A stretch of 64,000 bases of DNA from Longimicrobium sp. (GTDB lineage Bacteria; Gemmatimonadota; Gemmatimonadetes; Longimicrobiales; Longimicrobiaceae). Under the pieces are notes generated by a model. That model was not told the DNA's origin, did not search any database, and saw only the letters and a program-made list of their open reading frames with translations. This document shows, piece after piece, positions 36,351 through 38,335 of this stretch (its first letter is position 1; the number at the start of each line of letters is the position of its first letter). The stretch is from assembly GCA_036387335.1 (NCBI GenBank), contig DASVTZ010000177.1:2413-66412 (forward strand), written 5' to 3'. Both the position numbers and the translations under genes were made by a program.

Positions 36351-36379
36351 TTGACGGTGGGGGAGGGGCAGGTTAGATT
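36351..36379 (+). promoter_or_regulatory. Sigma70 promoter of the tRNA cluster
   Basis: TTGACG-N17-TAGATT, 13 nt before tRNA-fMet. Confidence 0.75.
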
Positions 36380-36392
36380 GGTGGCTCTGTGT

Positions 36393-36466
36393 CGCGGGGT
36401 GGAGCAGCCTGGTAGCTCGTCGGGCTCATAACCCGAAGGTCGCGGGTTCGAATCCCGCCCCCGCTA
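36393..36466 (+). tRNA. tRNA-fMet(CAT), initiator
   Basis: Cloverleaf, 1:72 mismatch, three G-C pairs in the anticodon stem; CCA not encoded. Confidence 0.95.
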
Positions 36467-36473
36467 TAGCCCC

Positions 36474-36507
36474 AAACCCCGCCGCCGAAGCCGGGCGGTT
36501 TTTTGTT
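36474..36507 (+). terminator. Intrinsic terminator-like hairpin inside the tRNA cluster
   Basis: CCGCC..GGCGG stem followed by TTTTTT. Confidence 0.55.
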
Positions 36508-36510
36508 CGG

Positions 36511-36583
36511 GGCCAGGTAGCTCAGTTGGTAGAGCATGCGACTGAAAATCGCAGTGTCGGGGGTTCGACTCCCTCCCTGGCCA
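36511..36583 (+). tRNA. tRNA-Phe(GAA)
   Basis: Cloverleaf GGCCAGG..CTGAAAA..CCTGGCC-A. Confidence 0.95.
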
Positions 36584-36608
36584 TCTGGGTCGAGAATGTG
36601 AAGTCTGT

Positions 36609-36681
36609 ACGCCTGTAGCTCAATTGGTAGAGCACCGGTCTCCAAAACCGGCGGTTGGGGGTTCGATTCCCTCCGGGCGTG
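36609..36681 (+). tRNA. tRNA-Trp(CCA)
   Basis: ACGCCTG/CGGGCGT-G acceptor; CCGGT-CTCCAAA-ACCGG. Confidence 0.95.
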
Positions 36682-36700
36682 TGCGGACACCAAGCGATAC

Positions 36701-36773
36701 GCCGCTATCGTCTAGGGGACTAGGACGGCGCCCTCTCACGGCGCAAACCGGGGTTCGAATCCCCGTAGCGGTA
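36701..36773 (+). tRNA. tRNA-Glu(CTC)
   Basis: GCGCC-CTCTCAC-GGCGC anticodon arm; GGTTCGAATCC. Confidence 0.93.
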
Positions 36774-36802
36774 TTGACGGACAAGCTCGGGACCCGGGCG
36801 TT

Positions 36803-36875
36803 GCTCGCGTAGCTCAGCCGGCAGAGCACTTCCTTGGTAAGGAAGAGGTCATGGGTTCGAGTCCCATCGCGAGCT
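36803..36875 (+). tRNA. tRNA-Thr(GGT)
   Basis: CTTCC-TTGGTAA-GGAAG. Confidence 0.95.
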
Positions 36876-36897
36876 TGTAGGGAATTGATCGGGATCG

Positions 36898-36969
36898 GCT
36901 CCCATCGTCTATCGGTTAGGACACGACCCTTTCAAGGTTGAGAGCGGGGTTCGACTCCCCGTGGGAGCG
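36898..36969 (+). tRNA. tRNA-Glu(TTC)
   Basis: CGACC-CTTTCAA-GGTTG. Confidence 0.93.
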
Positions 36970-36976
36970 CTGGTAC

Positions 36977-37049
36977 GCGGGAATAGCTCAGTTGGTAGAG
37001 CGCAACCTTGCCAAGGTTGAGGTCGCCGGTTCGAGCCCGGTTTCCCGCT
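36977..37049 (+). tRNA. tRNA-Gly(GCC)
   Basis: CAACC-TTGCCAA-GGTTG. Confidence 0.95.
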
Positions 37050-37094
37050 CTGTTGAAGGACCGGAGAGGTGAGTTCTCCGCAAGCAGTACCCAA

Positions 37095-37168
37095 GGGGCC
37101 GTAGCTCAGTCGGTTAGAGTGCCGGACTGTCACTCCGGAGGTCGCGGGTTCGAGTCCCGTCGGCCCCG
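37095..37168 (+). tRNA. tRNA-Asp(GTC)
   Basis: CCGGA-CTGTCAC-TCCGG. Confidence 0.95.
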
Positions 37169-37239
37169 CTTGAAGATGAGCGAAAGTGCTTTTTGAAAAT
37201 CCGGGTTGGTTCGCTCACCCCTCCGGGGGCGGGCACAGC

Positions 37240-37312
37240 GGGGCCGTAGCTCAGTTGGGAGAGCGCTTGAATGGCATTCAAGAGGTCAGGGGTTCGATTC
37301 CCCTCGGCTCCA
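37240..37312 (+). tRNA. tRNA-Ala(GGC)
   Basis: CTTGA-ATGGCAT-TCAAG; G3:U70. Confidence 0.95.
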
Positions 37313-37328
37313 TGAAAGGCGAGTACAT

Positions 37329-37412
37329 GGTGGGGTGGCCGAGTGGCTAATGGCAGCAGACTGTAAATCTGCCGGGCTTCGCCCTACGTAGGTTCGAATC
37401 CTACCCCCACCA
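37329..37412 (+). tRNA. tRNA-Tyr(GTA)
   Basis: GCAGA-CTGTAAA-TCTGC; long variable arm. Confidence 0.95.
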
Positions 37413-37426
37413 CTCAGGGCAGCATC

Positions 37427-37500
37427 GGGCGGTTAGCTCAGTTGGTTAGAGCGCCACGTTGACATCGTGGAGGTCACAAGTTCGAGTCTTGTACCGCCCA
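37427..37500 (+). tRNA. tRNA-Val(GAC)
   Basis: CCACG-TTGACAT-CGTGG. Confidence 0.95.
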
Positions 37501-37519
37501 CTGCGCAGGTGACAAACAC

Positions 37520-37592
37520 GGGGCTGTAGCTCAGATGGGAGAGCGCTGCAATCGCACTGCAGAGGTCAGGGGTTCGATTCCCCTCAGCTCCA
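37520..37592 (+). tRNA. tRNA-Ala(CGC)
   Basis: CTGCA-ATCGCAC-TGCAG; G3:U70. Confidence 0.93.
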
Positions 37593-37607
37593 TTGGTACG
37601 GGAGAGC

Positions 37608-37679
37608 GCCACCGTAGCTCAGTGGTAGAGCACTCGATTCGTAATCGAGCGGTCGTCGGTTCAATCCCGACCGGTGGCT
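37608..37679 (+). tRNA. tRNA-Thr(CGT)
   Basis: CTCGA-TTCGTAA-TCGAG. Confidence 0.95.
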
Positions 37680-37720
37680 CTTGTTCAAATCGCCGATCCG
37701 GCGTTAGCTTGTAGGCCGTC

Positions 37721-37793
37721 GCGGGAGTAGCTCAGTTGGTAGAGCATCAGCTTCCCAAGCTGAGGGTCGCGGGTTCGAGCCCCGTCTCCCGCT
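37721..37793 (+). tRNA. tRNA-Gly(CCC)
   Basis: TCAGC-TTCCCAA-GCTGA. Confidence 0.95.
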
Positions 37794-37802
37794 TGTGTGT
37801 GC

Positions 37803-37875
37803 AGCCCTCTGGTGTAATTGGCAACACGCCTGACTCTGACTCAGGAAAGTCCAGGTTCGATCCCTGGGGGGGCTA
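37803..37875 (+). tRNA. tRNA-Gln(CTG)
   Basis: CCTGA-CTCTGAC-TCAGG; acceptor AGCCCTC/GGGGGCT. Confidence 0.92.
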
Positions 37876-37899
37876 CTTTCGGTTTCGGTTGCGGGTTTT

Positions 37900-37986
37900 G
37901 GAGAGGTGGGTGAGTGGCTAAAACCAACGGTTTGCTAAACCGTCCTGTCCAAAAGACAGACGCGGGTTCGAATCCCGCCCTCTCCG
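37900..37986 (+). tRNA. tRNA-Ser(GCT)
   Basis: ACGGT-TTGCTAA-ACCGT; long variable arm; G73. Confidence 0.93.
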
Positions 37987-37996
37987 CTCCGCGTTT

Positions 37997-38082
37997 GGAC
38001 CGGTGTCCGAGTGGCTTAAGGAGCACGATTGGAAATCGTGTGGGGTGAATAGCCCTCGTGGGTTCGAATCCCACCCGGTCCG
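37997..38082 (+). tRNA. tRNA-Ser(GGA)
   Basis: CACGA-TTGGAAA-TCGTG; long variable arm. Confidence 0.93.
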
Positions 38083-38106
38083 CTCGGTGGTCGCAGGTGG
38101 TTGTTT

Positions 38107-38180
38107 CGGGACGTGGCTCAGCCCGGTAGAGCACTCGCTTCGGGAGCGAGGGGTCGCCGGTTCAAATCCGGCCGTCCCGA
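38107..38180 (+). tRNA. tRNA-Pro(CGG)
   Basis: CTCGC-TTCGGGA-GCGAG; C1-G72. Confidence 0.95.
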
Positions 38181-38195
38181 CTGTGTGCAGGATCA

Positions 38196-38278
38196 GGAGG
38201 CGTAGTCTAATTGGTAAGGCACCGCACTCGAAATGCGGCGGGCGCAAGCCTTTGGGGGTTCGAGTCCCTCCGCCTCCG
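38196..38278 (+). tRNA. tRNA-Ser(CGA)
   Basis: CCGCA-CTCGAAA-TGCGG; variable arm GGGCGCAAGCCT; G73. Confidence 0.92.
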
Positions 38279-38293
38279 TGCTGTGGTAGCAAC

Positions 38294-38335
38294 AAAAAAC
38301 GGCCCTGGTTCGCTTCGGCGAGCCAGGGCCGTTTT
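38294..38335. terminator. Bidirectional intrinsic terminator after the tRNA cluster
   Basis: AAAAAACGGCCCTGGTTCGC-TTCG-GCGAGCCAGGGCCGTTTT. Confidence 0.85.

Follow-up and report, generated by a model that had tools for sequence, protein, structure and literature searches.

A nineteen-gene tRNA array conserved in Gemmatimonadales and an attenuator-like leader in its relatives

Gene content and layout of the array

The window analyzed here is a 64-kb stretch of DNA from Longimicrobium sp. Between positions 36392 and 38278, its plus strand carries 19 tRNA genes, all co-oriented, on which ARAGORN and Rfam agree; their Rfam tRNA scores range from 55.8 to 74.4 bits against a cut-off of 29. The genes have 19 different anticodons and serve 13 amino acids (one gene each for Met, Phe, Trp, Asp, Tyr, Val, Gln, and Pro, two each for Glu, Thr, Gly, and Ala, and three for Ser), leaving Leu, Arg, Lys, Ile, His, Asn, and Cys without a tRNA in the array. 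Within 1,887 bp, tRNA sequence takes up 1,451 bp (77%), at a density of about 10 genes per kb (19 in 1.887 kb) and with spacers of 6–70 nt. G34 or C34 is present in 18 of the 19 anticodons. The Rfam search of the 64-kb window found no RNA family other than these 19 tRNAs, rRNA included. An initial annotation, made from the letters of the DNA, had described 19 tRNAs in 1.9 kb that carry 19 anticodons and serve 13 amino acids, the same seven missing amino acids, anticodons mostly reading G- or C-ending codons, and no rRNA, and our searches bear out each of these points. The features of the locus, with contigs named for copies elsewhere in the genome, are as follows.

36351–36379, plus strand: σ70-type promoter, TTGACG-N17-TAGATT, 9/12 matches
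36393–36466, plus strand: tRNA-fMet (CAT), initiator; copies on C102 and C155, 74/74 and 73/74 identical
36481–36505, plus strand: internal terminator-like hairpin with T6, between tRNA-fMet and tRNA-Phe
36511–36583, plus strand: tRNA-Phe (GAA); sole copy
36609–36681, plus strand: tRNA-Trp (CCA); sole copy
36701–36773, plus strand: tRNA-Glu (CTC); divergent second copy on C194 (61/73)
36803–36875, plus strand: tRNA-Thr (GGT); the sole other copy, on C61, has a 16-nt internal duplication
36898–36970, plus strand: tRNA-Glu (TTC); sole copy and the single U34 tRNA of the array
36977–37050, plus strand: tRNA-Gly (GCC); identical second copy on C194 (73/73)
37095–37169, plus strand: tRNA-Asp (GTC); divergent second copy on C110 (56/74)
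37240–37312, plus strand: tRNA-Ala (GGC); sole copy
37329–37413, plus strand: tRNA-Tyr (GTA); sole copy
37427–37501, plus strand: tRNA-Val (GAC); sole copy
37520–37592, plus strand: tRNA-Ala (CGC); sole copy
37608–37680, plus strand: tRNA-Thr (CGT); sole copy
37721–37793, plus strand: tRNA-Gly (CCC); sole copy
37803–37876, plus strand: tRNA-Gln (CTG); second copy on C239 (72/73)
37900–37987, plus strand: tRNA-Ser (GCT); sole copy
37997–38083, plus strand: tRNA-Ser (GGA); sole copy
38107–38181, plus strand: tRNA-Pro (CGG); sole copy
38196–38278, plus strand: tRNA-Ser (CGA), last gene; sole copy
38294–38337, no strand assigned: terminal intrinsic terminator (A6, 18-bp stem, UUCG loop, T4)

On direct reading, the first gene bears the marks of an initiator tRNA: positions 1 and 72 are mismatched, the anticodon stem has three G-C pairs, and A11 stands opposite U24. 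The promoter at 36351–36379 is the single promoter-like site between 35800 and 38800, in a scan that is blind to promoters off the σ70 consensus; genus relatives keep its -35 and -10 boxes ahead of their initiator tRNA, and sister families have boxes of the TTGACA/TACCTT type. The terminal hairpin spans 38300–38331, with TTTT behind it, and owes four A-U pairs of its stem to the A6 and T4 runs on either side. Its folding energy is -35.9 kcal/mol (z -7.76), which none of 200 shuffled sequences matched. This terminator, whose sequence is common to the relatives L004 and L022, is potentially bidirectional, facing the convergent TIR gene. We considered and rejected a promoter in the 70-nt Asp-Ala spacer, where no site passes the criteria and the fold is unremarkable. 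The locus thus has the layout of a polycistronic tRNA operon, with one promoter, one terminator, and spacers too short for promoters, suggesting that the array genes are co-transcribed. The single promoter and the strong terminal hairpin stand as first annotated, but a second, weak terminator-like hairpin with T6 follows the first gene.

Gene copies, codon demand, and tRNA maturation

The genome is a MAG of 265 contigs, 95.65% complete with 3% contamination. Infernal found 57 tRNA-like genes in it, 19 of which (33%) belong to the array. For 13–14 of the array anticodons, including all Phe, Trp, and Tyr genes, the genome holds no other intact copy, and a second intact gene exists for five anticodons only; whether the genes are sole copies, as the initial annotation had asked, is answered in the affirmative for the former set and in the negative for the latter. 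Since the MAG is divided into 265 contigs and carries 3% contamination, the term "sole copy" owes part of its support to a sister family, whose closed genomes have 17 of their only 45–46 tRNA genes in the array. Genus relatives also have the second gene for initiator Met, for Gly (GCC), and for Gln (CTG). An ARAGORN "Ser CGA" call on C14 and ARAGORN "intron" calls on C4, C14, C16, C109, C110, C137, and C230 were rejected because Infernal did not confirm them.

When codon demand was estimated from 2,926 long ORFs with high GC3, the 18 elongator tRNAs covered 58.0% of sense codons; with Watson-Crick pairing only, the figure was 55.3%. The G+C content of the contig (70.2%) is close to that of the genome (70.3%), and the G34 and C34 elongators would supply the C- and G-ending codons that dominate such a genome. 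The complementary cluster anticipated by the initial annotation is present on contig C191, as a five-tRNA operon with an embedded RNase P RNA gene (Lys CTT, Arg ACG, Leu CAG, Leu AAG, RNase P RNA, Arg CCG).

No CCA is encoded after any of the 19 array genes, in agreement with what had been claimed, nor after any other tRNA gene of the genome, so that the CCA-less state is not special to the array. Because Infernal end points vary by one base, we relied on ARAGORN ends and direct reading to identify the base that follows the discriminator; it is T in 17 of 19 array genes by ARAGORN ends and, on direct reading, also in Met and Trp, for which the ARAGORN frame is off by one base. Nearly all tRNA genes of the genome likewise have T at this position. 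The genome encodes an RNase Z equivalog (312.8 bits; cut-off, 292.95), one gene of the CCA/poly(A) polymerase family, and RNase P RNA (251.6 bits). Firmicutes arrays are transcribed together and matured by RNase P, with RNase Z and CCA addition for CCA-less genes. A similar route would apply here: the σ70-type promoter would drive a single transcript of about 1.95 kb, with the initiator tRNA first and the 18 elongator tRNAs behind it, and terminated by the strong hairpin at 38300–38337; RNase P would cut each 5′ end, RNase Z would cut just past each discriminator base, and the CCA-adding enzyme would finish every 3′ end, presumably in that order.

The spacer behind the initiator tRNA gene and its counterpart in relatives

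The hairpin at 36481–36505 consists of 6 pairs (5 of them G-C), a 7-nt loop, and T6, and ends 5 nt before tRNA-Phe in a 43-nt spacer that, in the window, contains neither a start codon nor an ORF. It has the layout of an intrinsic terminator, a G+C-rich hairpin followed by at least 5 U, and the hairpin with its T run is conserved in all genus relatives, the U run being 5–6 long. Its fold is weak alone, at -11.4 kcal/mol, and no better than that of shuffled sequences (z 0.04). It is counter-intuitive that a terminator should stand ahead of 18 tRNA genes that are in high demand and mostly sole copies. We nevertheless read the hairpin as a probable leaky terminator, or attenuator, that every transcript of the 18 elongators would have to pass. 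Escherichia coli metY-rimP-nusA-infB offers a parallel, an operon led by an initiator tRNA with leaky intrinsic terminators behind it, through which transcription of the downstream genes has to read; the downstream genes there encode proteins, whereas here they are 18 tRNAs.

In relatives, a small conserved ORF lies between the initiator tRNA and the next tRNA, and a covarying terminator comes after it, an arrangement resembling that of an attenuator. The leader ORF is carried by 27 of 40 long spacers in families f2 and f3 and by 10 loci in f6, and displays an SD-like motif and a stop codon at a fixed distance from the terminator; its conserved codons specify amino acids linked to the downstream genes. 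The conserved codons spell W..(D/E)(T/S/A)WS(S)P in f2/f3, and the f6 leader, (N)FAFAFFNF, stands directly before tRNA-Asn, tRNA-Phe, and tRNA-Trp. Between the strong terminator and the first elongator tRNA there are 0–25 nt; in f6 the distance is about 40 nt. The covarying terminator of the sister families, T2, was defined on an f2/f3 hairpin alignment from which f1 hairpins were left out, and the internal hairpin of the window aligns to its 3′ arm and U run. An antiterminator pairing that would sequester the 5′ arm of the terminator is a candidate in relatives: 80.6% is paired in register versus about 50% when slid, with little covariation and a duplex energy of mean z only -1.3 versus dinucleotide shuffles. 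Single folds of f6 loci gave clear alternative pairings. The 42-aa leader ORF of locus L015 has no match in a catalogue of 5.8 billion proteins and has therefore been annotated by nobody. An Rfam E-value scan of nine relative loci, which would have listed RNase P RNA or another high-scoring RNA, gave only tRNA among the matches listed and is uninformative on leaders.

Since its fold is no better than shuffled, the hairpin of the window may instead be inactive or serve RNA processing. In such a case, the hairpin and U run would form a processing or stability element (for instance, a place where RNase E/G enters, or a hairpin protecting the 3′ end of the initiator tRNA precursor) or a functionless relic. 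The presence of a similar hairpin with T7 behind the leading tRNA gene of the C191 operon, and the rarity of single-stranded U-rich stretches at 70% G+C, are consistent with this possibility, which we regard as unlikely though by no means negligible: the position, 3′ arm, and U run match the covarying, strong terminators of sister families, and 5–6 U are kept in all genus members.

An improbable alternative is that the array comprises at least two units, the hairpin and T6 fully terminating a monocistronic initiator gene and the other 18 genes being transcribed from unrecognized or internal promoters. The conservation of the hairpin and T run, the strength of the equivalent sister-family hairpin (-16 to -25 kcal/mol with U5–8), and a TTGACA box that f6 keeps between the terminator and the next tRNA would accord with such an arrangement. 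However, a promoter before tRNA-Phe has no room, as the gap from the T run is 5 nt in the window and 0–25 nt in relatives, and the remaining spacers measure 6–70 nt. Moreover, the criteria that detected the Met promoter found no further promoter-like site in the array and none in 41 long Met-to-next-tRNA spacers of relatives.

We return to the leaky terminator, which may be a reduced form of the longer sister-family leader: 36481–36505 with its U6 would be a stripped remnant of the device in relatives, with the ORF deleted and the terminator so weakened that it is a constitutive leak. For Gemmatimonadales and the sister order, we propose, with the chances about evenly balanced, that a ribosome-sensing attenuator gates the tRNA super-operon. 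The leader codons would be read by tRNAs of the operon itself and leader translation would determine whether the terminator forms, so that the supply of the operon's own charged tRNAs would feed back on transcription of the tRNA genes. The trpL, pheL-pheA, and pheM-pheST attenuators control genes for amino acid biosynthesis or aminoacyl-tRNA synthetases. Their likeness (short ORF, terminator, alternative pairing) is to the feature of the relatives and not to that of the window, which has lost the ORF and keeps a weak hairpin, and the controlled genes here would be the tRNAs themselves.

Origin of the array and comparison with known arrays

Genus relatives share the array in syntenic, collinear form, with whole-array alignments at 80–99% identity and an identical gene order in loci L001–L012 and L022. 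The synteny check proposed at the outset for other Gemmatimonadota thus gave a positive result, which extends to two further families: f2 has a nearly invariant 17-gene version (25 loci in about 12 genera), and f3 has a version of up to 22 genes. tRNA-Glu (CTC) is absent from the array in some genus members. The Phe-Trp junction is found in f1 (3/4), f2 (57/70), f3 (5/7), and f6 (2/2), whereas none of the 317 genomes sampled from the phylum's remaining families has it. Upstream, synteny extends to a prolyl oligopeptidase gene in five relatives. A neighboring gene is 87% identical to its counterpart in an "uncultured Gemmatimonadales" record bearing the same 19-tRNA array, which bears out the phylum that the initial annotation had implied. 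On the 3′ side the flank varies and includes a TIR defence-like gene of low G+C content. The idea that this gene is an integrated element found no support, as no att-like repeat of the tRNA-Ser (CGA) 3′ end was found downstream in the window and no integrase nearby.

In the picture given by two surveys, long arrays of non-Firmicutes bacteria stem from horizontal transfer, are redundant, and are often silent (PMC4758250, PMC8421152); Gemmatimonadota are mentioned in neither. L-arrays in particular are sporadic, HGT-borne, supernumerary, and often silent (PMC8421152). Known L-arrays and tRNA array units (the Anabaena trn operon, the Acidithiobacillus ICE, Mycobacterium and mycobacteriophage) likewise hold many tRNAs in 2–3 kb behind one promoter; in contrast, the present array is order-wide, collinear, and essential in content, and has neither a sprinkled, HGT-type, or mobile distribution nor supernumerary genes. 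Descent from a phage, plasmid, or ICE adding supernumerary tRNAs, which the survey picture (PMC4758250, PMC8421152) and the variable, TIR-bearing 3′ flank might recall, is already contradicted and scarcely credible given the collinearity in three families, the non-redundant sole copies of essential tRNAs, the syntenic upstream flank, the failure to find an integrase nearby or an att repeat downstream in the window, and the absence of any phage or plasmid record covering 80% of the array (0 and 0; best coverage, 31%). Duplication of all 19 genes elsewhere with a foreign affiliation, which the initial annotation had named as the sign of a mobile array, was not found, and its preference for a core host cluster over a phage array is supported by the collinearity, the sole copies, and the low phage and plasmid coverage.

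The tRNA array unit of Tran et al. 2016 requires at least 20 tRNA genes at no fewer than 2 per kb (PMC4758250). Our array exceeds this density and has 19 genes (17 in f2 and up to 22 in f3), and therefore would not be in that survey's list. The long, dense, co-oriented, vertically inherited arrays of Firmicutes, such as Bacillus subtilis trnB/trnD with 16–21 genes (PMC4758250), resemble it as housekeeping tRNA sets; however, Bacillus arrays lie beside or after rRNA operons and are partly redundant, whereas the window array has no rRNA within 64 kb, is non-redundant, places the initiator tRNA first, and belongs to Gemmatimonadota. A-arrays grow by accretion, through stepwise gene recruitment (Santamaria-Gomez et al. 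2021, PMC8421152). The likeness to them lies in clusters of 4–8 genes in sister orders (Trp-GluCTC-GluTTC-Asp; AlaGGC-GlyGCC-ValGAC-ArgACG-ProCGG; Met-Asn-Phe-Trp-ThrGGT), whose sub-orders recur inside the array and would fit its growth by fusion of smaller operons; the change may also have run the other way, by fission. Compared with A-arrays of non-Firmicutes phyla, however, 17–22 genes are far longer, and the gene order then became frozen order-wide.

We conclude with considerable confidence that the array is a tRNA operon native to the order Gemmatimonadales and passed on by vertical descent. Its hosts are widespread soil bacteria. One rRNA-independent operon holds a third of the tRNA genes, serves more than half of the codons, and keeps its gene order across an order of Gemmatimonadota, making it a clear counter-example to the survey picture. 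As a consequence of the one-operon arrangement, tRNA supply would hang on one promoter plus RNase P, RNase Z, and CCA addition. While the array itself is of a kind already known, the attenuator hypothesis in relatives is the main lead and, if true, would extend classical attenuation from amino acid and synthetase genes to the tRNAs themselves.

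Content of the array and the genome-wide tRNA set

ARAGORN and the Rfam tRNA model concordantly placed 19 tRNA genes on the + strand at 36392–38278, with 19 different anticodons serving 13 amino acids, just as the initial annotation had counted. The array spans 1,887 bp, of which 77% is tRNA, with spacers of 6–70 nt. A Rfam scan of the 64-kb window detected no family besides tRNA and no rRNA, and none of the 19 genes is followed by an encoded CCA, so both of these proposed absences were borne out. On direct reading of its 1–72 mismatch, three G–C anticodon-stem pairs and A11–U24, the first gene is an initiator tRNA. 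The single promoter and single terminal terminator described earlier were both present, but an internal hairpin with a T6 run had been overlooked:

36351–36379, + strand: promoter TTGACG-N17-TAGATT, the sole promoter-like site around the array, ~13 nt upstream of the first gene
36481–36505, + strand: 6-bp hairpin followed by T6, ending 5 nt before tRNA-Phe
38300–38337, array end: terminal hairpin and T run, very stable (−35.9 kcal/mol, z −7.8)

The genome (5.82 Mb in 265 contigs; 95.65% complete, 3.07% contamination) and the 69-kb contig carrying the window are equal in G+C content (70.3% and 70.2%). A genome-wide Infernal search for other copies found 57 tRNA-like genes, including the array's 19. 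Thirteen array anticodons had no other copy (Phe, Trp, Tyr, Glu-TTC, Ala-GGC, Ala-CGC, Val-GAC, Thr-CGT, Gly-CCC, Ser-GCT, Ser-GGA, Ser-CGA and Pro-CGG). The initiator tRNA is present in three copies, the array's included, and Gly-GCC, Gln-CTG, Glu-CTC and Asp-GTC have second genes elsewhere. The lone other Thr-GGT copy (C61:1220–1308, − strand), near a contig end, has 16 nt duplicated in tandem within its anticodon arm, which points to a pseudogene or else to an assembly artefact. Redundancy is impossible in two closed sister-family genomes, since the array supplies 17 of their total of only 46 and 45 tRNA genes.

G or C is the first anticodon base in 18 of the 19 genes, in agreement with the earlier remark that the set mostly reads G/C-ending codons; U34 tRNAs are scattered singly. 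Across 2,926 long high-GC3 ORFs, the 18 elongators decode 58% of sense codons, and by arithmetic from the codon table the array and a second tRNA operon jointly decode ~78%. This operon, on contig C191, is the complementary cluster that had been anticipated elsewhere in the genome:

C191:29202–30182, − strand: Lys-CTT, hairpin and T7, Arg-ACG, Leu-CAG, Leu-AAG, RNase P RNA, Arg-CCG, terminator

Its promoter is TTGACA-N17-TAGCTT, and it likewise has a terminator-like hairpin after the first tRNA. The type A RNase P RNA (386 nt, 251.6 bits) lies 15 and 3 nt from its tRNA neighbors, and its release would thus fall to RNase Z and to RNase P itself. The operon's tRNA-Leu AAG (C191:29683–29766, − strand) has A34, which is unusual in bacteria outside tRNA-Arg(ACG); the sister families have Leu-GAG within the array instead. 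At C214:74900–75440 (− strand), a tandem series of tRNA-like genes, each ~123–125 nt (Infernal 51.7 and 40.7 bits), comes after tRNA-His. It has at least two members and apparently three, and the anticodon loop of each contains ~50 nt of inserted G+C-rich sequence with a hairpin; to our knowledge, short insertions of this type are not expected in bacterial tRNA genes.

Genome-wide, no tRNA gene encodes CCA, and T follows the discriminator in nearly all. The processing genes of this genome include an RNase Z equivalog that scores above its curated cut-off and a single CCA/poly(A)-polymerase-family gene. If established tRNA biology applies to the array, RNase P would cut the 5′ ends and RNase Z would cut after the discriminators, with CCA then being added.

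Distribution of the array and its variable 3′ flank

The entire array is alignable in genus relatives at 80–99% identity with identical gene order, Glu-CTC alone being missing in part of the genus. A closed Gemmatimonadales MAG has the same 19 tRNA genes in the same order, next to a prolyl oligopeptidase gene that is 87% identical to the one adjoining the array in the window. In the sister family f2, a 17-gene version (Met, Phe, Trp, Glu-TTC, Asp, Ala-GGC, Leu-CAG, Leu-GAG, Arg-ACG, Val-GAC, Ala-CGC, Thr-CGT, Gln, Ser-GCT, Ser-GGA, Pro-CGG and Ser-CGA) is nearly invariant across 25 loci from ~12 genera; as exceptions, one locus lacks Arg-ACG, another is truncated by the locus end, and genus g4 has the last two Ser genes swapped. 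The sister family f3 has up to 22 genes. The Phe–Trp junction pattern was found in 3/4 genomes of the window's own family (a count that includes the unpublished genome G130, which enters that count only), 57/70 of f2, 5/7 of f3 and 2/2 of f6, a family of a sister order, and in 0/317 genomes from the other sampled families of the phylum. Among phage and plasmid records, coverage of the array reaches 31% at most. With collinear relatives, sole copies and no such mobile match, the array is thus core and vertically inherited, which supports its initial interpretation as a host cluster rather than a phage array. Sister orders have smaller tRNA clusters, and the gene orders within these turn up again inside the array; this (unrooted) comparison suggests growth by cluster fusion.

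Several f2 genera (L013, L015, L112–L115, L128, L129 and L131) have 160–570-nt spacers among Ser-GCT, Ser-GGA, Pro-CGG and Ser-CGA, and L129 has an 820-nt spacer before Ser-CGA; the window equivalents are 9–23 nt. Among the matches listed for the scanned loci, there was no high-scoring Rfam family besides tRNA.

The DNA downstream of tRNA-Ser(CGA) differs even among relatives with 98–99% identical arrays, so the 3′ flank is a variable spot. In the window, a 419-aa protein (38474–39733, − strand) with an N-terminal TIR domain and a C-terminal DUF4268 directly follows the array; its gene lies in a 55–59% G+C patch of the 70% genome, and the protein matches the PADLOC candidate system PDC-S11 and ThsB-like TIR models. 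No integrase or att repeat was found at this flank. G021, a 99%-identical relative, has a second occurrence of the final ~65 nt of the array query, which cover the 3′ portion of tRNA-Ser CGA and continue past it, ~1.8 kb downstream of its array (C285 ~36048–36146); this may represent the att-type repeat of an element that entered at this tRNA gene. A VWA-domain protein followed by a Ser/Thr protein kinase is encoded at 40001–42346 (+ strand); the kinase matches PADLOC PD-T4-6 kinase models at E 1.6e-25, a similarity perhaps due to nothing more than the fold common to kinases.

A candidate leader-peptide attenuator between tRNA-fMet and tRNA-Phe

The Met–Phe spacer is 43–57 nt in the window's genus, always with a hairpin and a T5–6 run, and a more elaborate 100–340 nt in f2 and f3. 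There, a hairpin (T1) with a short U tract lies directly 3′ of the initiator tRNA and is followed, in 27 of 40 long spacers (15 genera), by a leader ORF of 20–52 codons with an SD-like motif and an ATG or GTG start. Its N terminus is variable and its core, [D/E][T/S/A]WS(S)P, conserved, often with W four residues upstream; a search with the 42-aa ORF of L015 found no match in a catalogue of 5.8 billion proteins. Core variation is concentrated at third codon positions (entropy 0.53, 0.27 and 1.01 at positions 1, 2 and 3), which argues for translation of the ORF. The stop codon always lies 55–95 nt upstream of tRNA-Phe, and a second hairpin (T2; −16 to −25 kcal/mol) with U5–8 ends 0–25 nt upstream of that gene. 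T2 is supported by covariation (91% of cells paired, four pairs with compensatory changes, a score reached by 0/500 shuffles). Criteria that do detect the Met promoter found no promoter-like site in 41 long spacers, so the elongator genes appear to depend on T2 read-through. A G-rich segment at the ORF 3′ end is complementary to the T2 5′ arm in register (80.6% paired versus ~50% when slid), but covariation is slight and duplex energies are only modestly more favorable than those of shuffles.

In f6, ten loci from six genera have Met, a 197–242-nt spacer, Asn, Phe, Trp and further tRNAs. The spacer peptide ends in (N)FA(F/L/I)AFFNFR(R)ER(A/G) or SW(Y/H/C)L..AFFNFRER(A/G) and abounds in precisely those residues that the next three tRNAs carry. 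Its Phe codons sit in the 5′ arm of a 9-bp hairpin, its stop codon adjoins sequence complementary to a strong terminator's 5′ arm, and the minimum-energy structure in single-sequence folds is either terminator or antiterminator. This geometry is that of the classical attenuators of phe and trp. L150–L159 share a TTGACA box in the interval from the leader terminator to tRNA-Asn; 19–20 nt beyond it is a conserved GTAT, immediately adjacent to the 5′ end of tRNA-Asn. The spacing is unlike that of a sigma70 promoter, and the box may act as another promoter or as a binding site. The small tRNA clusters of other orders had plain promoters, and no leader was found in them.

Genus g4 and the window's family have no leader ORF, and their hairpins are weaker (about −10 to −16 kcal/mol) than those where the ORF is present (−15 to −25 kcal/mol). 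The window hairpin has a 3′ arm and U run in common with T2 and a 5′ arm resembling that of T1. We infer from these sequence comparisons that a deletion removed the leader ORF in the window lineage and that the attenuator left behind is leaky and probably constitutive. Shuffled sequence folds just as well as the hairpin, which may therefore have a processing role or no role instead.

Place among known tRNA arrays

Two surveys of prokaryotic tRNA arrays do not mention Gemmatimonadetes (PMC4758250, PMC8421152); one set a threshold of ≥20 genes per array (PMC4758250), and the other attributed long arrays outside Firmicutes and Tenericutes to HGT and regarded them as supernumerary (PMC8421152). 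Our literature search found no paper pairing Gemmatimonas with a tRNA cluster, operon or array, and none on leader-peptide attenuation of a tRNA operon, the two matches concerning pheL and synthetic terminators. The initial observation holds overall: the array belongs to an ordinary class, tRNA operons, and takes an unusual and apparently undescribed form that is long, non-redundant, rRNA-free, headed by the initiator tRNA and conserved across the order. The more novel lead is the candidate leader-peptide attenuator before tRNA genes in its relatives, which is only vestigial in the window.
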